Source: a virus (lineage: Duplodnaviria; Caudoviricetes). Taken from it: 64,000 nt of DNA. The stretch's first letter is position 1; every line of letters starts with the position of its first letter. The notes under the pieces were generated by a model that saw only the letters and a program-made list of their open reading frames with translations, was not told the origin of the DNA and did no database searches. The stretch is from IMG/VR virus record IMGVR_UViG_3300032116_022045. The stretch is one strand, 5' to 3'. Shown piece by piece: positions 7,957 to 60,651 of the stretch. The position numbers and the translations under genes were made by a program.

Positions 7957-8178
7957 TTAAATTGTTTTGAAAAAATTTTTAATTGATTCTTTTAATTTAA
8001 CGTACCATGGTTTTTTTATTATTTTTATGGTTGTTAAATTTTTTTTCATTTCATCACCTAAACCATTTTTTAATTCGTTAATGAATTGTTGTTTTTTTAA
8101 AGAAGTCAAATACTCGTCATTTTTTGCTTCTTTTTCAAGTTTTTTAAGCTCTCTTACTAATAAGTCTTTATTATTCAT
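7957..8178 (-). CDS. Hypothetical protein
   Basis: 73-aa ORF, ATGA overlap with the Nudix gene. Confidence 0.65.
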   Translation of the reverse strand: MNNKDLLVRELKKLEKEAKNDEYLTSLKKQQFINELKNGLGDEMKKNLTTIKIIKKPWYVKLKESIKNFFKTI

Positions 8179-8708
8179 ATTTTAATTATTTTTTCTTTCA
8201 TATCACGGTATAAAGGTAACGGTATTCTTTTTTTTGAGAACCATCCACATTTTAGATTTTCATCATCTAATTTAGCTTTAAATTCATCTTCAGTAAAACC
8301 TTCATAATAATGAAATGTAACCCCATCATCATTTTTAACCACATTTATTTTTTTAAAATCAATTATATCAGGGTTTATTGAGATTTCTTCTTTTATTTCT
8401 CTCTTTAACCCTTCTAAAATATCTTCATTTTTTTCTATATGTCCAGCAACACATGACCAAGTTGGTTTTTTATCATTTCTTAATAATAAGAATATTCTAT
8501 CAGTTGATAAACATTTAATAAGTACTCCAGCGGCAACATTTGGTTTTGTTGAATAATTATTAGAATTATCATGACCACATTTATGGCAAACATATTTATC
8601 ATGTTCATCAGAGTCTACTGTATTCCAAGACCAACCACAGCTTGAGCAATTAACTATTTTATTTATTTCTTCTTTTAATAGTTTAGTTATTATAATTTTG
8701 TTGTCCAT
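8175..8708 (-). CDS. Nudix hydrolase with N-terminal leader and Zn ribbon
   Basis: Nudix box GHIEKNEDILEGLKREIKEEISI; CSSC...CHKC; N-terminus IIITKLLKEE. Confidence 0.88.
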   Translation of the reverse strand: MDNKIIITKLLKEEINKIVNCSSCGWSWNTVDSDEHDKYVCHKCGHDNSNNYSTKPNVAAGVLIKCLSTDRIFLLLRNDKKPTWSCVAGHIEKNEDILEGLKREIKEEISINPDIIDFKKINVVKNDDGVTFHYYEGFTEDEFKAKLDDENLKCGWFSKKRIPLPLYRDMKEKIIKI

Positions 8709-13084: not shown

Positions 13085-15526
13085 TTAATTTATTTTATTT
13101 TTTTTAGCCTGTTCAGCTTCTTTATCAATCATATTTATTATGAATTCAGAAACTTTAGATATAATTTCTAAATTATTTTGAATTTTTTCTTTATTAGCTT
13201 TCCAAAGTGCCAAATAAGTTGAATGATGTTTAACTGGTAAATCATAATGTTTTAATACAACATAAGATACACTTTCAGCTTGTAATTCAACCAATTCATT
13301 TTTTTCTTTACCTTCACCATTATCAATATAATATATTGATGATTTTTTCCAATGCATTAATTCATGTGCTATTTCATGTATCATTGTTGATAATCTAGCA
13401 ACACCAGTTACGCTAGAAGTTAAATTAATATGGTCACCTGCCGAATAACCTTTCTCACCACTTTTAGAATCTGAAGATGTTACTTTAATTCCCATATTAT
13501 TAGCTATATCTTTAACATATTCAAATAATTCATCAGCTGTTTCTGATGGTGTGTTATCTCCCCACCATTGTGGCGTTTCTGGTATTTCACCTTCTGGACT
13601 TGTGGCTTCAGTATCGGCAATATCAAATACAGGTACTGCTCTAAATCCGCTAACATCTTTTTTGAAACCCAATTCATCACCAATTTCTTCATCTGAATCT
13701 TTTGTCTTTGTTATTATTGGTGCTAAAATAAAAATACTTTTAGCACCCTTTTTAACTTGTCTATTTTTTTCTTGCCATTTTTTATATGATGCTACACGTG
13801 TTGCATTTGGATTTTGTATAAAAATTAACATTCTATTATAGAAACTATAATTATGAAATTTAGAAAAAAATGTTAAATATCTTCTTATTTCAGCAGATAA
13901 AGCTTTTTCATCTGTAGCGTTAGCTAAATCATTAATATACATTTCAATTTTGCTTTTTAATAATGATTTTTTATCAGTAGCCGAATTATCAATCGCTTCT
14001 TCTAATTCTTCTAAACTATCTACAATATATTCAACTTTATTTACTAATGATAGTGTTTTTTTAGCAATATCCATTTTATCTTTACTTATCACCCAATTAC
14101 TACCATTCCATTGAAAACCATTTTGTTTTAAAATATTTTTATTTGTAAATGTCTCTTGACTAGCTGCTTTACCTTCTAAATCAGATATTACAATTAATTC
14201 ATTTTTTTCTTTATTAATTTGTAATTTTAAAGCCTCATTTAAAGATGGTGAAATTATATTACCTTTAGTTTTCTTTATCTTAACAACATTATCAATAGCA
14301 CCAGTACTACAACCACTACCAGCTGGTTTATTATTAAGTTTAACACAATCATTGAATTCTACAAATCCGCCATCAGGATATTGTGTTTTTTTCTGTGCTT
14401 TTGTTTTTTTAACTGGTTTAAAAGTGCCATCTCTGTTAATCCCTATTAAAGCATTTGTATCATATGGACCAACACTATCAGTACCTTGTGTTGTTTCATA
14501 AACTACTGGTATTTTACCAGCTATTGTTGGTCTGGTTATCGGTTTGCTAAATAATCCAGTGTATTGTCCAGAAGAACCAGCAGTAGTTATTTCATTTATA
14601 TCTTCTTCTTCTTCTTCTTCTTCTTCTTCTTCTTTTTCTCTTTTTTCTAATTCTTTTTTTCTTATATCAGCTATCTTAGCTAATAATTCTTCTCTATTAG
14701 TTTTTTTCTTATTTGAATCTATTCCCCTAGCTTTTTGTAAATCACCTTTAAATTTTTGCCATACATCACTAAACTCAGATTCTATTATAGACATTAAATG
14801 TTTATCTTTTTCATATATTTTTTTTAACTCATTTAATACATTTTCATCAATTAATTTTTCTTGGCCATCATCTTTATATTTCAATTTACAACTACCATCT
14901 TCATGTATCTCCATAATGAAGTCAGCATTCTCATATAAATTTCGTGATTTTTTGGCACTCTTTACTAGTCTATACCAAAGCTGCGGAAATTCTTTTTCGT
15001 TTGGTTCTAATATAACTTTAAAACCGTTTTCAAGACTTTTAAGCGCATCATCTTTAGTAGAATGGATTCTATTGACAATGTATTTATTTTCGTCAACATC
15101 AAATACTAAAACATTTTGTTCAACCAAAGATTTAACAACACTACCAAAAGTTAAATTCTTTTCTGATAATATACTAGGAAACTCAATATCTGAAACATTA
15201 ATATGCTGTGCTTTACCATTTTTCTGTAATTCTTTTATTTCATCAATATATAAATAATTAAGAAAATTTTCAGACAATTTTTTGTAATCAATCTTTGACT
15301 CGTTTTCCATTATTTGTTTTCCGACTTTATCTATATTTGACACACTAGGATTTGTTCTTTTTGGTTTAATTGTGTTTGAATACGTTATAGGTTCTATCTC
15401 ACCCTCACTAAAATATTTTTTAAATAATTTATCAACTCTTGTTTCACCACCTTTTACTTTAGGCGATTTATTCAAATTTTCTTTTATAAGATTATATTGT
15501 TCTTTGGTTATTTTTATTCTTTTCAT
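13085..15526 (-). CDS. Multidomain protein: leader/low-complexity N-terminus plus ArdC-like ssDNA-binding domain plus zincin metallopeptidase
   Basis: FSKFHNYSFYNRMLI..QNP.AT.VASYKKWQEKNRQVKKGAKSI.ILAP (ArdC-N); MIHEIAHELMH...ELQAESVSY (HExxH...E); N-terminus MKRIKITKEQYNLIKE. Confidence 0.8.
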   Translation of the reverse strand: MKRIKITKEQYNLIKENLNKSPKVKGGETRVDKLFKKYFSEGEIEPITYSNTIKPKRTNPSVSNIDKVGKQIMENESKIDYKKLSENFLNYLYIDEIKELQKNGKAQHINVSDIEFPSILSEKNLTFGSVVKSLVEQNVLVFDVDENKYIVNRIHSTKDDALKSLENGFKVILEPNEKEFPQLWYRLVKSAKKSRNLYENADFIMEIHEDGSCKLKYKDDGQEKLIDENVLNELKKIYEKDKHLMSIIESEFSDVWQKFKGDLQKARGIDSNKKKTNREELLAKIADIRKKELEKREKEEEEEEEEEEDINEITTAGSSGQYTGLFSKPITRPTIAGKIPVVYETTQGTDSVGPYDTNALIGINRDGTFKPVKKTKAQKKTQYPDGGFVEFNDCVKLNNKPAGSGCSTGAIDNVVKIKKTKGNIISPSLNEALKLQINKEKNELIVISDLEGKAASQETFTNKNILKQNGFQWNGSNWVISKDKMDIAKKTLSLVNKVEYIVDSLEELEEAIDNSATDKKSLLKSKIEMYINDLANATDEKALSAEIRRYLTFFSKFHNYSFYNRMLIFIQNPNATRVASYKKWQEKNRQVKKGAKSIFILAPIITKTKDSDEEIGDELGFKKDVSGFRAVPVFDIADTEATSPEGEIPETPQWWGDNTPSETADELFEYVKDIANNMGIKVTSSDSKSGEKGYSAGDHINLTSSVTGVARLSTMIHEIAHELMHWKKSSIYYIDNGEGKEKNELVELQAESVSYVVLKHYDLPVKHHSTYLALWKANKEKIQNNLEIISKVSEFIINMIDKEAEQAKKNKIN

Positions 15527-55976: not shown

Positions 55977-56008
55977 CAAATTTACTACTTTTTTTTAAAT
56001 ATAACAAA
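55977..56008 (-). promoter_or_regulatory. Bacteroidota sigmaA-type promoter for nrdA
   Basis: TTTG-N20-TAAATTTG, 7 nt before the ATG. Confidence 0.75.
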
Positions 56009-56080
56009 GAAACAAATAACAAATAAAATATAAAAAAAAAATTATTATTTATAAAAAATCAATACTTTTTTTCTTTTAAC

Positions 56081-56088
56081 ATATTTAT
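56081..56088 (+). promoter_or_regulatory. Putative late promoter motif ATATTTAT for the tail tube gene
   Basis: Upstream of ATG 56144. Confidence 0.5.
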
Positions 56089-56143
56089 TATTAACAATAA
56101 CAAAAATAAAAAAATAACAATTAACTAAAAAAAATAAATTACT

Positions 56144-56632
56144 ATGGCCGATTTACTCATGAAAATGCCACTACCTTATGAACCTAAAAGAAAAAATAGG
56201 TGGCTTATTACTTTTCCAGCAGATTTAGGTATTCAACAATGGTGGTTGTCTTCAGCTTCAAGACCATCAATAACACAAAATGAAACTGAAATAGCATTTT
56301 TAAATACCTCAACTTGGGTTGTGGGTCGTTTTAATTGGGAAGCTATTGATGTTACTTTCCGTGACCCTATCGGACCTTCAGCTTCTCAAGCTATTATGGA
56401 ATGGGTTCGTTTACACTCAGAATCAATTACTGGTAGACAAGGTTATGCAGTTGGTTATAAAAGACCTGTAGAATTGGAAATGCTTGACCCTACTGGTGTT
56501 GTGGTTGAAAAATGGTTACTTGATGGTACTATGTTAACTAACGTTAATTTTGGTGACCTTTCTTTTGAAGATGATGGTATTGCTGAAATTACAGCAACTT
56601 TAAGATTTGATAGAGCAATACTCCTTTTTTGA
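56144..56632 (+). CDS. Tail tube protein (T4 gp19-like)
   Basis: YEPKRKNRW, S.SRPS, GRFNWE.I.VTFRDPI.PSASQA.MEW, YK....L.MLDPTG..VEKW.L.G, F.DL...DD....I..TLRFDRA. Confidence 0.85.
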   Translation: MADLLMKMPLPYEPKRKNRWLITFPADLGIQQWWLSSASRPSITQNETEIAFLNTSTWVVGRFNWEAIDVTFRDPIGPSASQAIMEWVRLHSESITGRQGYAVGYKRPVELEMLDPTGVVVEKWLLDGTMLTNVNFGDLSFEDDGIAEITATLRFDRAILLF

Positions 56633-56668
56633 TTTTTTGATTATCAACTACTTACGTATTTTTTTAAT

Positions 56669-56696
56669 AAAAACTCTTTCAAACGAAAGAGTTTTT
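56669..56696. terminator. Bidirectional intrinsic terminator
   Basis: AAAAACTCTTTC-AAAC-GAAAGAGTTTTT. Confidence 0.85.
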
Positions 56697-56718
56697 TTAT
56701 TTTAATATAATTAAGTGT

Positions 56719-56802
56719 ATGTCAGAATCAGAAATTATGTTATCTAGAGGTATAAATAAGATATATGATTGTGGTACTGTTAAATGGGTAATTAATTACT
56801 AA
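56719..56802 (+). pseudogene. Remnant of the C-terminus of a phage mobile endonuclease
   Basis: Translates MSESEIMLSRGINKIYDCGTVKWVINY*, resembling the recalled E.EIM..RG..(R/K)I(Y/W)DCG..K tail. Confidence 0.5.
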
Positions 56803-57685
56803 ACGTGTCAAAAATTTTTCTATGGAACTCATCGTAGGTTAAATCTGGTGATATTGTTACAATAGGGTTAATTTTTATTTCTAAATTTATTGGTAGTTCT
56901 TTATTTAATATTTTTGCTGCCATATATCTATGATGACCATCTTCTATATAAAACCCTGGTTTTTTATTTTTAATTTTTAAAAATGAGACATCAATTGGTT
57001 CTGATAAGTTTATTTTTTTAGCCCATTCTTTTGGTGATAAACCGCTTTTTTCTATTTCATATACAACATTTTCCAAATCGGCTAACCATTTTAATTTTAA
57101 TTCTTTTGGTTTTAAGGTTTTAATATCTTCTTCAGAAAAACCATGTGCTAATCTATCTAATAGTTCTATTGATAAACCACCACTTCTAAGTAATTGTTCT
57201 GATGTTTCATATTTTGATAATTCTTTTTTTAAATCATTAATGTATAAATCATTTTTAAATTTAAAAACATCATTATATAATGTGTTTTCAGTTATTAGTT
57301 CGTCAAAAATAACATCCCATTTGGTTAGAGGTATCCACCCATATTTTGTTTTTATTTCTAATTTATTTACTGGGATATTTTCAAATGTTATATATTCATC
57401 ACCTTTATTATTTTTTATTCTGTTAGACAATTCAAAATCATCAGTTAAAATTGTTCTTAATATTACCATTCTATCTTTACCACCTTTAGACATGGCATAA
57501 TATTTTGCATAATCAATATCGTTTGTGAAGCTAATTGAAGGTTTTATTTCACCAACATTATTTGTTTTAATATAACCATCTTTTTTTATATTGTTTGCAG
57601 CACCTTTACTAGTCCCATGATAAAGATAAATCTGTTCATTATTATTGGTAATTTCCCTTAATAGTTTTCTTATTAGTTGTTTCAT
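56792..57685 (-). CDS. Leader-tagged ADP-ribosyltransferase-like domain plus ParB-like domain
   Basis: MKQLIRKLLRE; YLYHGTS...I...G...SFT.D..YA..YA...E; C-terminal IEDGHHRYMAAK. Confidence 0.7.
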   Translation of the reverse strand: MKQLIRKLLREITNNNEQIYLYHGTSKGAANNIKKDGYIKTNNVGEIKPSISFTNDIDYAKYYAMSKGGKDRMVILRTILTDDFELSNRIKNNKGDEYITFENIPVNKLEIKTKYGWIPLTKWDVIFDELITENTLYNDVFKFKNDLYINDLKKELSKYETSEQLLRSGGLSIELLDRLAHGFSEEDIKTLKPKELKLKWLADLENVVYEIEKSGLSPKEWAKKINLSEPIDVSFLKIKNKKPGFYIEDGHHRYMAAKILNKELPINLEIKINPIVTISPDLTYDEFHRKIFDTFSN

Positions 57686-57700
57686 TTATCTTTTTTTTTA

Positions 57701-58210
57701 TTAAAATAAATCAATATAATATTTTTGGGTGAATTCTTCTATTTTAAATAGGGTTCTGTTCATATCATTTATTATTCTATCTAATTCGTTTTTTGGTATT
57801 TCTTCATTATTTTTTACCATTATTTCTTTATTATAAGATAGGGTTTCATTTAAACCTTTCATCGCAATAATAAAAACTCTAAATGTTAAATCATCCATTT
57901 CTTTTGGTTGCATTGTATGAAATTGATTTTTTATAATAAATTTATGAAACGTATTATCATTTATTTTATGTGGGTAATAAATGATTTCAGATGAGATGTT
58001 TAACTGTGGGAATTTTATTATTTCATCACCCATCATCATTGTTACGTTTTCATTATAAACTACTCTTTGTGCTTCTAATCTTTTTTCGTCTCTAGGGTGT
58101 TTAAATATATTATATTCTTTAAGAAAAGGGATTCTTTTAATTAATATATCTTTAATATTATTGTTTGATTCTAAGTTTTCTCTTAGTAATTTTTTAATTA
58201 ATTTTTTCAT
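57701..58210 (-). CDS. Leader-tagged hypothetical protein; start revised to ATG 58210
   Basis: MKKLIKKLLRENLE N-terminus. Confidence 0.7.
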   Translation of the reverse strand: MKKLIKKLLRENLESNNNIKDILIKRIPFLKEYNIFKHPRDEKRLEAQRVVYNENVTMMMGDEIIKFPQLNISSEIIYYPHKINDNTFHKFIIKNQFHTMQPKEMDDLTFRVFIIAMKGLNETLSYNKEIMVKNNEEIPKNELDRIINDMNRTLFKIEEFTQKYYIDLF

Positions 58211-58214
58211 GTTA

Positions 58215-58790
58215 TTAATGGTCTCCGACAATAGCGTTAATTGGTTTTTTTAATTCTTCACCATTTATTTTAATTATTTTCACATTAGTACCTTTATTTA
58301 GCGCACATTCCCATTGGTCTTCACCATACCAAATAAATGAATGAAACCCATAAATCCAATCTATATCTTTTGGGTTAATAATAGCTTCTAATATATAAGG
58401 TTCACCCGTTTTCATCATTTTTATATTTGGGTGTCGCTCTCCGTATGCCCCAACGCCATTTTCATCAAATGACCAATGCTTACCTATATCTTTTATATCT
58501 AAATCTTTTATAGAATTTAATTTAATTAATCTATAAATTGTTATTTTATTACTGTTTTTTAATTCATTATATTTATCAACATATAGTTCTATTCTTTCTA
58601 TATAATTATCTCTAGAGTATTCTGCTTGTATATCATTTTTATCTTCTTCATACGCATCAAAAGATTCAGCAACGTCTTCTATATTTTCATAAGCGTATTT
58701 TGTCGCTGTTTCGTAGTTAGATAAAAATGAATCATATTCATTATATTCATTTAAATTTTCTCTTAATATTTTTTTAATTAAATTTTTCAC
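58215..58790 (-). CDS. Leader-tagged R-S-E-clan ADP-ribosyltransferase-like protein
   Basis: MKNLIKKILRENLNE (GTG start); TIYR...HWSFD...EDQWEC.L..G. Confidence 0.6.
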   Translation of the reverse strand: MKNLIKKILRENLNEYNEYDSFLSNYETATKYAYENIEDVAESFDAYEEDKNDIQAEYSRDNYIERIELYVDKYNELKNSNKITIYRLIKLNSIKDLDIKDIGKHWSFDENGVGAYGERHPNIKMMKTGEPYILEAIINPKDIDWIYGFHSFIWYGEDQWECALNKGTNVKIIKINGEELKKPINAIVGDH

Positions 58791-58791
58791 G

Positions 58792-59631
58792 TTACTTTTC
58801 TTTACTCATTTTATATAAATTAATTTTTTCTGATGTTCCAATAAGATTGCCGCTATCATCATAGTTAGAAATAGTTTGATAGGTATATTTAACATATTCT
58901 GAACCTTCTTTAATTAAATTTGTACAATATTTATATAATGTATTAGACTGTGTGTCATTAGTTTCTTTAATAATTTCTTCAGCTGCTCTTAACCCACCAT
59001 TAGCTAAGTTTATACTAGCCTCACCAAATGTTTTAATGTCTTCTGGGTTAACAACACCATGTGACTCTCTTAATCTTATTAAATATATTATTGCTTTAGT
59101 TACCATGTTAGTATCTCTTAAATGTTCTGACCCTCTTTCTTTCATATCCATTATAAAACCTATGGCAATATTTATATGCATTTCACTTATTGGTTGATTA
59201 GTTGTACTAGCGTATGCTAATGAAGCTGAAATAATTAAAAAAACCATAACTAATATAGTTAAGTTAATAAGTTTAAATACTACAGGGTATTTTTCTCTAA
59301 AAGATAGAACTGTTTTTGATACCCAATTAATAAAAGTTTTTAATTTTTCTAATATTTTTAATCCTATTTTAGATGCGTTTAACAAAAAAGTGTTTAACAC
59401 TTCTATTATCTTTTGGTTTATTTTTTCAGATATATTTGAAAATATATTTTCATTAATTGTTAAATTTAATTCTTTAATATATTCTTTTTCACTTATTTTA
59501 TTTTCAATAAAATTTTTTGTTAATTTATGTTCTATTAAGAATTCTTTATTAAACTCAATTTTAGTGTGATTTTGTTGTTCTTCTAATAAGTTCTTAAACT
59601 TATTCATAAACATTCTCATTTCTTTGCTCAT
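58792..59631 (-). CDS. Leader-tagged protein with one central TM segment
   Basis: MSKEMRMFMNKFKNLLEE; VFKLINLTILVMVFLIISASLAYA; ATATTTAT at 59649-59656. Confidence 0.7.
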   Translation of the reverse strand: MSKEMRMFMNKFKNLLEEQQNHTKIEFNKEFLIEHKLTKNFIENKISEKEYIKELNLTINENIFSNISEKINQKIIEVLNTFLLNASKIGLKILEKLKTFINWVSKTVLSFREKYPVVFKLINLTILVMVFLIISASLAYASTTNQPISEMHINIAIGFIMDMKERGSEHLRDTNMVTKAIIYLIRLRESHGVVNPEDIKTFGEASINLANGGLRAAEEIIKETNDTQSNTLYKYCTNLIKEGSEYVKYTYQTISNYDDSGNLIGTSEKINLYKMSKEK

Positions 59632-59668
59632 AATATATTAATTTTTATATAAATATATTAACAATAAA

Positions 59669-59692
59669 AAAACCCACTTTAAAGTGGGTTTA
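59669..59692. terminator. Intrinsic terminator after nrdB
   Basis: Perfect palindrome AAAACCCACTTTAAAGTGGGTTTT. Confidence 0.8.
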
Positions 59693-59697
59693 TATTT

Positions 59698-60651
59698 TTA
59701 GAATTCTTCATCAAAAATACCATCCATTGTTTTTGGTATTTCAATTCTTGTGTATTCACCTTCTCTTTTTTCAAAGAAATTATTTTTTGTTGATAGACCT
59801 ATTCTTGACATAAAATCAAGTGGATTTGAGACCATAAATTCTCTTTCGCAACCAAAGTCATTTAAAACGATATCTGTAACATATTGTATATATTTTAACA
59901 TATCATTTTTTGTCAGACCTTGAAGACCATCTGGCATACTTTCTTCAACAAATGTTTTTTCTACATCATAGCAACCAAGAATTATATTTCTAATTTCTGT
60001 TTTATTTAGCTTATATTCTTCTTTTAGATAGTTTTTATATAAGTTTAATGCGAACTCGTAATGAAATGTTTCATCTCTTAATATAAGTTCATTCATAGCT
60101 GCTAAACCTTGCATTTTATTTCTACTTCTAAACCAGAACACACCAGAGAACACACTAGCAAATGAAATACCTTCAACACAAGCAAAAGCTAATAATCTAT
60201 GTGGAAATGATGGGTGTTGTATCCATTTTTCAGCCCATTCAGCTTTTTTAAATACAGCTTTGTTTGTTTCCATCGCATTAAATAAATCTTCTTTTTCTTG
60301 TAGATTTTTTATGTAGGTATCGATTAATAATGAATAACCATTTGCATGAACTTGTTCAATAAATGTTTGGTGTCCATAAAAATATTGTGCCTCTAACAAT
60401 TCAACTTCATTTAAAAAGTTTGTTGCTAAGTTATCAATAACGAGACCATCAGATACAGCAAAGAAAGCTAAGATGTTTTTAAGATATGTTTTTTCATTAT
60501 CTTTTAGTTCATCGAATTTATCTTTACTCAAATCAGTTTCTTCAGCAACCCATGTTTGGGATTCTGCTTTTTTATACATTTGCCATAAATCATTGTGTAT
60601 GATTGGGAAAATGGAATATCTTTTTTTAATTGTTGAATCTTTCAGGTACAT
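59698..60651 (-). CDS. nrdB: Class Ia ribonucleotide reductase beta subunit
   Basis: FFAVSDG, EQVHANGYS, VEGISFASVF, RDETFH, NNFFE. Confidence 0.95.
   Translation of the reverse strand: MYLKDSTIKKRYSIFPIIHNDLWQMYKKAESQTWVAEETDLSKDKFDELKDNEKTYLKNILAFFAVSDGLVIDNLATNFLNEVELLEAQYFYGHQTFIEQVHANGYSLLIDTYIKNLQEKEDLFNAMETNKAVFKKAEWAEKWIQHPSFPHRLLAFACVEGISFASVFSGVFWFRSRNKMQGLAAMNELILRDETFHYEFALNLYKNYLKEEYKLNKTEIRNIILGCYDVEKTFVEESMPDGLQGLTKNDMLKYIQYVTDIVLNDFGCEREFMVSNPLDFMSRIGLSTKNNFFEKREGEYTRIEIPKTMDGIFDEEF

Follow-up and report, generated by a model that had tools for sequence, protein, structure and literature searches.

Leader-tagged ADP-ribosyltransferase-like and ParB-like proteins encoded by a four-gene unit of an uncultured T4-type jumbo phage

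Enzymes that are packaged in the phage head and injected from it are the first phage proteins that meet the host, and to our knowledge the only well-described models of such enzymes are Alt of phage T4 and the computationally defined polyvalent proteins. Whether the products of a compact group of four genes in the IMG/VR virus record IMGVR_UViG_3300032116_022045 are delivered in this manner is the question addressed here. The stretch of DNA analysed (64,000 nucleotides, hereafter the window) is taken from the minus strand of this 108,651-bp record, which is 31% complete by CheckV, has a GC content of ~27% and contains T4-type baseplate wedge and tail-tube genes; its source is an uncultured freshwater T4-type jumbo phage. 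The four genes form a unit at 56792-59631 on the minus strand of the window, and their open reading frames (ORFs) are tightly packed, with intergenic gaps of 1, 4 and 15 nt. The original prediction for this region was an operon of four leader-tagged genes carrying two different ADP-ribosyltransferase (ART)-like cargos, and all four ORFs were found with the N-termini that it had quoted. These are ORF4 (58792-59631, minus strand; 279 aa, N-terminus MSKEMRMFMNKFKNLLEE), ORF3 (58215-58790, minus strand; 191 aa, GTG start, MKNLIKKILRE), ORF2 (57701-58210 from its ATG, minus strand; 169 aa, MKKLIKKLLRE) and ORF1 (56792-57685, minus strand; 297 aa, MKQLIRKLLRE).

Leader peptides of the four genes

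The leader of ORF1, ORF2 and ORF3 is near-identical and follows the consensus MKxLI[KR]K[LI]LRE, with L-R-E at residues 9-11. In ORF1, the leader (57653-57685, minus strand; residues 1-11) is a strongly amphipathic helix with the L-R-E at its end, and the structural model predicts a helix at residues 2-12 with lower pLDDT. The leader of ORF3 (58746-58790, minus strand; residues 1-15, MKNLIKKILRE-NLNE) has its L-x-E end adjoining the conserved domain and was modelled as a low-confidence helix (residues 2-13) lying apart from the fold. The hydrophobic moment of the three leaders was found to be 0.69-0.93 (0.93 for ORF1) against 0.58 for the 95th percentile of internal 11-mers. The three shared leaders are thus strongly amphipathic, as had been proposed, and L-x-E ends are present on all four proteins. 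The description of all four genes as carrying one kind of leader stood for three of them, which share it; ORF4 has a different tag and is a membrane protein. This type-B tag of ORF4 (within 58792-59631, minus strand; residues 1-18, MSKEMR...NLLEE) ends in L-E-E at residues 16-18. The same type recurs once more in the record, and in a complete relative, G001 (287,855 bp), it is borne by two genes that flank the ORF3 ortholog.

The codons of the leader differ at synonymous positions among ORF1, ORF2 and ORF3 (CTA/TTA, ATA/ATT and AGG/AGA) and the peptide is kept. Thus, it is the peptide and not the DNA that is conserved, and the shared leader can be ascribed neither to chance nor to gene conversion. 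Furthermore, short N-terminal peptides ending in L/I-x-E were observed on diverse cargos, orthologs and paralogs being alike in this design. The orthologs of ORF3 bear the leader type of the genome in which they reside, and the same type occurs there on otherwise unrelated cargos; in G001, one 17-residue leader together with its promoter stands on at least three cargos without detectable mutual similarity. In the present record, the region at 50-52 kb of the window is an array of genes with shared leaders, and the replication, nucleotide-metabolism and housekeeping proteins are without such leaders. Of 116 N-termini, a strict heuristic leader detector picked 5 (4.3%), the rate in internal windows being 0.9%, and this detector is too crude for a census.

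Exact 40-nt copies of the ORF3 leader region were also found on other genes in metagenome contigs. One 9.7-kb freshwater contig (run X8) contains two copies of the ORF3 start and leader (window 58749-58789; 40 nt) that lie ~450 nt apart, have 0 and 5 mismatches, and are embedded in unrelated flanks, which indicates that the leader is also disseminated among other small genes as a module of DNA. In G002 (675 kb, classed as a provirus), the ORF3 ortholog lies within seven consecutive small genes whose products all begin with MK[YHK]LKL[YF]E[NE]F, which is a third type of leader; Y-H-[GS]-T ART-like starts occur in at least three of the seven.

ART-like and ParB/sulfiredoxin-like domains

The N-terminal domain of ORF1 (57305-57634, minus strand; residues ~18-127) had been proposed to carry the HGT...FT...YA pattern of ARTs, and YHGT (with H23), ISFT (with S52) and YAKYYA are indeed present in it. 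As a single sequence, ORF1 had no match in Pfam (E up to 1) and only a weak RNA 2'-phosphotransferase match in PHROGs, and the single-sequence PDB searches with ORF1 and ORF3 returned nothing relevant. An exhaustive search for the ORF1 N-domain recovered 78 cluster representatives, many of them embedded in polyvalent proteins of 1,200-4,500 aa, and segments of these giant proteins match ART-PolyVal, PARP and PTS_2-RNA below threshold. Among 66 aligned relatives, ART-PolyVal was matched by 19, PTS_2-RNA by 13 and PARP by 10. The 19 matches to ART-PolyVal (PF18760, gathering threshold of 31.2 bits) reached 5e-6 at best and were mostly under the cut-off; ORF1 itself did not match this family, nor did any other protein of the record, a 31% fragment. 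When the ORF1 N-domain family profile was compared with the PDB, Tpt1/KptA was the best match (E 7e-5), followed by cholix toxin, PARP15/14 and ExoA, and ARTs accounted for 30 of the 32 matches listed. The AF2 model of the domain has a pLDDT of 91.8, and ARTs occupied all of the best 50 rows of the Foldseek search in the PDB. The same was observed with VIA-align over 48,161 representative chains, where the best 50 rows were again ARTs and a Z of at least 2 was reached by just 104 chains; KptA scored Z 9.5 (84 aa, 2.5 Å), TreX Z 9.1 (102 aa) and LT-A Z 8.3 (102 aa). The ART fold was therefore found unambiguously by both profile and structure searches, and on its model the ORF1 N-domain is clearly predicted to be an ART fold of the H-Y-E class, near ART-PolyVal, PARP and the NAD lobe of Tpt1.

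The candidate catalytic residues of ORF1 were assigned from secondary-structure position and conservation, which give H23/S52/E110 as the predicted triad. H23 on strand 1 aligns with the YHGT motif of Tpt1, S52 lies on strand 2, and E110, which is nearly invariant, opens the predicted strand 110-113 (strand 5). Both H23 in its Y-H-G-T context and E110 are kept in at least 90% of the 66 sequences, and K67 and R77 are nearly invariant. The strand-2 Tyr of the class is absent from ORF1 and its close relatives, which have I-S-F-T with Ser52 at this place, and distant members have Y-F-[ST]. We also considered ORF1 as a Tpt1 orthologue and rejected it because the NAD lobe alone is present; the match covers only residues 91-180 of KptA, there is no RNA-binding lobe, and just 17 residues (tag and linker) lie upstream of the ART domain.

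An internal LITE site had been noted in ORF1, and L-I-T-E was located at residues 130-133 (57287-57298, minus strand; DELITE at 128-133), where the ART and ParB-like domains meet, as a candidate processing site. In the relatives, the ART domain ends in IF[DN]E[PL]L.E or at other [LI]-x-E sites, or the chain stops; such a site occurs at the C-terminal boundary of the ART domain in most of them. Upstream of the ART domain, an [LI]-x-E was found within 22 aa in 35 of 58 small relatives, against a background of 21% and 2 of 11 giant proteins. Similarly, 20 of 21 close orthologs of ORF3 have [LI]-x-E right before the conserved YN core, in a low-confidence linker.

The C-domain of ORF1 (56795-57244, minus strand; residues 148-297) contains EDGHHR at 248-253, and its D-G-H-H-R is invariant in 45 sequences. 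This segment aligns with the G-x-H-R segment of sulfiredoxin, in keeping with the DGxxR/GxxR nucleotide-binding motif of the ParB/sulfiredoxin superfamily. More than 190 metagenomic proteins share 60-70% identity with the domain, and many of these are free-standing with ~177 aa; among the relatives, the ART and ParB-like domains are found in both orders and singly. Its fusions in the relatives include the ORF1-type ART, ART-PolyVal, ankyrin repeats and the ORF3-type domain. The sole match in the PDB was sulfiredoxin (E ~1.4); in Pfam, DUF1015 was matched over the DGHHR segment by 44 of 45 members (best 8e-5), ParBc_2 by 4 and DndB by 2, and in PHROGs the family PHROG 1033, 'ParB-like partition protein', was matched at 1e-4. 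The ParBc HMM and the DdrB-type ParB family gave no match to the C-domain family in the Pfam scan. The support for the proposed ParB-like GHHR domain thus comes from the motif and from these weak but concordant profiles and not from the ParBc HMM, and its sequence features make a new family of the ParB/sulfiredoxin (Srx) superfamily plausible. With an ART and a ParB-like domain, ORF1 holds two unrelated effector domains in one polypeptide, which is the mark of a polyvalent protein, and it can be regarded as a "mini-polyvalent" effector.

The second proposed ART, ORF3, was expected to show YR...WS...Q-x-E, and Y86-R87, W106-S107 and Q159-W-E161 were found in it. We recovered 55 relatives, mostly 60-70% identical over the full length, on contigs of up to 288 kb and beyond. 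In an alignment of 25 sequences, Y70, Y74, R87, G103, W106, S107, F108, G112, G114, Y116, G117 and S151 are invariant, E161 is nearly invariant and Q159-x-E161 is conserved. The AF2 model (pLDDT 87.9) consists of a helical bundle (58560-58739, minus strand; residues 18-77, pLDDT >90), which had generic helical matches only, and an ART-like alpha/beta domain (58236-58550, minus strand; residues 81-185, extending to 187 in the model). In this model, R87 lies on the first strand (83-91) and S107 on the second (105-107), and Q159-W-E161 runs into the strand 161-164. The R-S-E pattern is therefore present in ORF3, but with only one Ser of the S-T-S.

Foldseek returned nothing significant for ORF3 (E ≥0.5), and its best weak rows were IcmQ, KptA, TreX, PARP13, exotoxin A, PltA and pertussis S1. 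By VIA-align, the beta domain (residues 81-183) matched IcmQ (Z 5.3), TreX (Z 5.1), CARDS toxin (Z 4.9) and KptA (Z 4.5), and the other high rows were chance helical matches to the bundle. On re-alignment, ARTs made up 44 of 50 rows, and the aligned ranges ran from ORF3 residue 81/82 onward against pertussis S1 from residue 4 and cholera A1 from residue 1; these ranges place R87 opposite the catalytic R9 of pertussis toxin and R7 of cholera toxin. The search of the ESM Atlas with the ORF3 model added DUF3990 and DRAT, and BFVD gave uncharacterised proteins of phages at E ~1e-4 along with weak rows annotated as ART. The ORF3 family profile found only a chance Rpb4 match in the PDB, the Pfam, PHROG and PDB-profile scans of the 25 family sequences found no ART family, including the Alt/VIP2 clade, and hhalign detected no relation between the ORF3 and ORF1 N-domain families. 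For ORF3, the expected ART fold thus gained support from matches that are nearly all ARTs and from the conserved R/S/Q-x-E pattern, while the scores stayed weak. ORF3 is probably an ART-fold protein and, because its beta domain matches almost only ART folds, yet weakly, it is a moderate ART candidate.

A paralogous ORF3 domain (31% identity, E 4e-5) was detected at the C-terminus of P0003, where E-R-E stands opposite Q-W-E. This single chain contains a ParB-like domain, an ORF1-type ART and an ORF3-type domain, and since it joins all three it ties ORF1 and ORF3 functionally. Another paralogous domain is the last one (residues 408-524; E 8e-8) of a 528-aa tagged protein encoded outside the window at L024:9477-11063, plus strand (G000:C1:98476-100062), where the Arg is kept, E-N-E replaces Q-W-E and Val stands at the Ser position. 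Two upstream segments of this protein, with FHGT and YHGN, have a further ART-type look and gave no profile match.

The remaining two proteins gave little in the searches. Apart from near-identical contigs, ORF2 had no match in Pfam, PHROGs, ESM Atlas, viral contigs and cultured phages, and ORF4 had no usable match in the Pfam, PHROGs, ESM Atlas and viral contig scans; the Atlas model of ORF4 is poor (pLDDT 0.58). The layout of ORF4 is a tag, a helical N-terminal part, one transmembrane helix (59215-59283, minus strand; residues 117-139, with a Kyte-Doolittle 19-residue mean of 2.56) and a C-terminal domain. ORF2 is a soluble protein and ORF4 is a single-pass membrane protein.

Promoter-like motif and genomic setting

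One ATATTTAT motif had been placed ahead of the unit, and it was found at 59649-59656 (minus strand), 25 nt before the ATG of ORF4, as a likely late promoter. The frequency of ATATTTAT is no higher than composition predicts, and its distance to the genes is fixed to a considerable extent: in the record, a start follows at 21-28 nt for 14 of 21 upstream occurrences, and in G001, 29 of 57 lie at 19-30 nt (p 3e-6). Among the genes preceded by position-locked sites in the record are two for the baseplate wedge and at least six others whose N-termini are leader-like; in G001, such sites precede the genes for the terminase large subunit, prohead protease and baseplate wedge, many tagged genes and also endonucleases. 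A sigma-70 promoter scan performed no better than shuffles.

The unit is bounded by two hairpins. The upstream one (59670-59691, minus strand; 9-bp stem with a T-run) is terminator-like and ends the transcript of the upstream nrdB, and the downstream one (56669-56696; 12-bp stem with flanking A/T runs) is a bidirectional terminator common to the unit and the convergent tail-tube gene. In the 4.2-kb scan, three terminator-like hairpins were found against 0.8 expected from shuffles, and none lies inside the four-gene unit. The neighbours are nrdB (59698-60651) on one side and, on the other, the convergent tail-tube gene followed by a split nrdA. DnaB, nrdB and nrdA are contiguous in G001, so the four genes and the tail-tube gene are an insertion in the present phage. 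We take the four genes to be an accessory transcription unit that is probably late.

The tail-tube gene (window 56144-56632, plus strand; PHROG 4542, E 9e-26) is a solitary gene in convergent orientation between the nrd genes. Its counterpart in G001, with 84% identity, is located elsewhere in that genome, away from the contiguous nrdB-nrdA. In addition, TAAC occurs immediately 5' of the ORF3 and ORF2 starts (58791; 58211-58214), overlapping the upstream stop codon, which may be fortuitous. The stretch recurs in near-identical copies in metagenomes of freshwater, lagoon and other origin (16 studies), and the metagenome contigs over it are population variants only. A 90-nt contig (run X10) joins the 3' end of ORF2 to the sequence past the ORF1 stop (window 56795-57698) with a depth of 26 against 7.8 for the ORF1-containing contig; its sides are short (36 nt), which makes it weak evidence, and it suggests a population variant lacking exactly ORF1.

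Several other tagged genes of the record encode recognisable domains. An 813-aa protein (window 13085-15526, minus strand) with the leader-like N-terminus MKRIKITKEQYNLIKENL contains ArdC-N (E 1.7e-10) and a weak M78/IrrE-like metallopeptidase region, a pairing that typifies the classical polyvalent proteins. A 177-aa protein (window 8175-8708, minus strand) tagged with the leader MDNKIIITKLLKEE and located behind ATATTTAT combines a NUDIX domain (E 2.7e-12) with a Cys-rich segment resembling a zinc ribbon; it is a possible partner of the ARTs in the processing of ADP-ribose or nucleotides. Outside the window, at L024:841-2406 (plus strand), a 521-aa protein with the leader MKNYIKFKLRNLLNE, also behind ATATTTAT, ends in the head domain of a PolyA_pol or CCA-adding-type nucleotidyltransferase (E 4e-20). 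Weakly kinase-like proteins are also among the tagged genes of the record. Such families were reported by Iyer et al. in virion-delivered polyvalent proteins or among packaged NAD-ADPr enzymes (PMC5512222, PMC9503650).

Proposed head packaging, rival explanations and known systems

Head targeting in T4 requires no more than the first 10 residues of IPIII, the protease gp21 cleaves after L/I-x-E (PMC9026906), and Alt is an ART that is trimmed at both ends and injected (PMC9026906, PMC3012670, PMC5512222). By analogy, the 11-18-residue amphipathic leaders ending in [LI]-x-E would act like the capsid-targeting sequence of T4 and would load soluble proteins into the prohead core, where a gp21-type prohead protease would remove them by cutting after the Glu. 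The same protease may split the two domains of ORF1 at L-I-T-E. The mature enzymes would reach the next host along with the DNA and would use NAD+ on host protein or nucleic acid, in takeover or counter-defence. The model gains plausibility from the ATATTTAT motif that the unit has in common with morphogenesis genes, from the excess of [LI]-x-E at the tag/domain junctions, from the polyvalent-type cargo domains of other tagged genes and from a gp21-type protease encoded in the relatives: G001, whose ORF3 ortholog is 69% identical, has a Peptidase_S77 gene (85.6 bits; head maturation protease in PHROGs, 8e-40), and S77 protease was found in two of four related records with an ORF3 ortholog, including G001. 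We infer the cleavage, packaging, injection, catalytic activity and targets of the ORF1-ORF4 products from these features, and head packaging with injection appears to be the best available explanation, to which our analysis gives an even chance.

Several observations weigh against this explanation. ORF4, as a membrane protein, is an odd cargo for a DNA-filled head and poorly fits it. A prohead protease (PF03420) was not found in the 31%-complete record, the unit lies between nrdB and nrdA, outside any head-gene module, and ATATTTAT also precedes DnaB and endonuclease genes, so that the "late" timing is not secured. Each single [LI]-x-E site is weak evidence, because the motif is short and the proteome is rich in Lys, Ile, Leu, Glu and Asn. 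The structural matches of ORF3 are weak (Z ≤5.3, Foldseek E ≥0.5) with no profile link to known ARTs, and the activity of ORF1 may differ or be lost, since Ser52 replaces the strand-2 Tyr of the H-Y-E enzymes in its sequence. Furthermore, no cultured relative was found when the DNA of 56000-60000 and the ORF1, ORF2 and ORF3 proteins were compared with 50,697 phage records.

The main rival is that the ARTs and the ParB-like protein are real but unpackaged and act in the producing cell, as ModA and ModB of T4 act inside the infected cell where they are made. The helix would then have another role, for example in oligomerisation, in docking to a structure of phage or host, or as an A-rich and structure-free start of translation for a host that does not rely on Shine-Dalgarno sequences. 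We hold this to be rather unlikely, and it remains the most serious of the alternatives. An intracellular role would agree with the lack of a Shine-Dalgarno-like purine run ahead of all four starts, with the extreme A/T-richness of the leader codons, with the position of the unit amid nucleotide-metabolism genes and with the occurrence of ATATTTAT before non-structural genes as well. However, the codons change synonymously, yet the peptide, its amphipathic periodicity and its terminal Glu are kept, and in fused relatives, leader-like [LI]-x-E segments also lie internally between domains, where the initiation of translation plays no part; the absence of such leaders from the housekeeping proteins of the record points in the same direction.

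Two further explanations appear improbable. The unit could be a conflict cassette in phage-phage or phage-host exclusion, in which ART toxins are combined with an immunity or neutralising partner (ORF2) and a membrane component (ORF4); it would then serve superinfection exclusion or be a toxin-immunity module, and its products would not be injected takeover factors. The nearest structures of both ART domains do include polymorphic toxins with dedicated immunity proteins (TreX, TreTu and Tne2), the small ORF2 lies between the two ART genes, ORF4 is membrane-anchored, the unit is inserted relative to G001, and the contig joining across ORF1 suggests presence/absence variation. Still, ORF2 has the leader of the ARTs, which one would not expect on an immunity protein that has to remain in the producer, no secretion or delivery domain is present, and elsewhere the orthologs of ORF3 form cassettes of one gene, with neither ORF2 nor ORF4 next to them. 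It is about equally improbable that one or both of the ART-like domains are catalytically dead binders of NAD+ or nucleotides, comparable to Legionella IcmQ and the pseudo-PARPs, which might for example sequester NAD-derived defence signals. The best structural match of ORF3 is the ART-like domain of IcmQ, which binds NAD+ and has no known transferase activity; ORF1 lacks the canonical strand-2 Tyr (Ser52), and ORF3 has a single Ser for S-T-S, with Val there in a paralog. The positions expected to be catalytic are nevertheless the most conserved ones (H23 and E110 in at least 90% of 66 sequences, R87 invariant and E161 nearly so), which is typical of active enzymes.

Returning to head packaging and injection, a broader possibility, which we put forward tentatively and at somewhat less than an even chance, is that these uncultured T4-type jumbo phages have "unbundled" the polyvalent protein. 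In place of one giant injected chain with many domains, dozens of one- or two-domain effectors would each carry a genome-homogenised tag that ends in a protease site, and any cassette with this tag would be loaded into the head and delivered. The effectors would comprise ARTs, ParB-like, NUDIX, ArdC-N/peptidase, nucleotidyltransferase and kinase-like proteins. If true, this would be a natural, modular and recombining protein-delivery system, in which at least two ART families and one ParB/Srx family lie outside the domain databases. If the tags direct packaging, they would be short and transferable signals by which large phage heads could be filled with foreign proteins, and injected effectors would become predictable from sequence alone.

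When compared with known systems, the unit resembles the capsid-targeting system of T4 (IPI-III, Alt and gp21) in having a ~10-residue MK... peptide ending in [LI]-x-E on unrelated cargos, an ART included (PMC9026906, PMC3012670), a gp21-type S77 protease in the relatives, and a motif in common with the morphogenesis genes. It differs from T4 in that the leaders are unrelated in sequence, more basic and amphipathic, and of several types per genome, the ARTs fall outside the Alt/VIP2 family, and one of the tagged proteins has a membrane anchor. The likeness to polyvalent proteins (Iyer et al, 2017; PMC5512222) lies in the ART family of ORF1, which is embedded in them and has relatives that score with PF18760, in the ART and ParB-type pairing that is typical of them, and in the ArdC-N, NUDIX and nucleotidyltransferase domains on tagged genes of the present phage. 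In contrast to a giant chain processed by a zincin-like MPTase, the domains here are single or paired, each with its own short tag; moreover, ORF1 falls under all Pfam ART thresholds and its C-domain matches neither ParBc nor the DdrB-type ParB family. Tpt1/KptA is the best match of the ORF1 N-domain in structure (Z 9.5) and profile (7e-5), including the YHGT strand, although ORF1 is without its N-terminal RNA-binding lobe. ORF3 shares the Arg-Ser-Q-x-E order with the R-S-E toxins that have Q-x-E (pertussis S1, C3-like and Scabin/pierisin) and with the minimal Rhs toxins (TreX and TreTu), and is set apart from them by low similarity, a single Ser, a short R-to-S spacing (20 residues) and the N-terminal helical bundle. 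The locus links the models of T4 Alt and the polyvalent proteins, as effector domains of giant proteins appear in it as small tagged genes in a widespread uncultured freshwater clade, and it supplies candidate catalytic residues and predicted cleavage sites for two ART families and one ParB/Srx-like family missed by Pfam. What is new here, relative to these systems, is the presence of T4-like address tags on effector domains of the polyvalent type, with ART and ParB/Srx families that current domain models miss.

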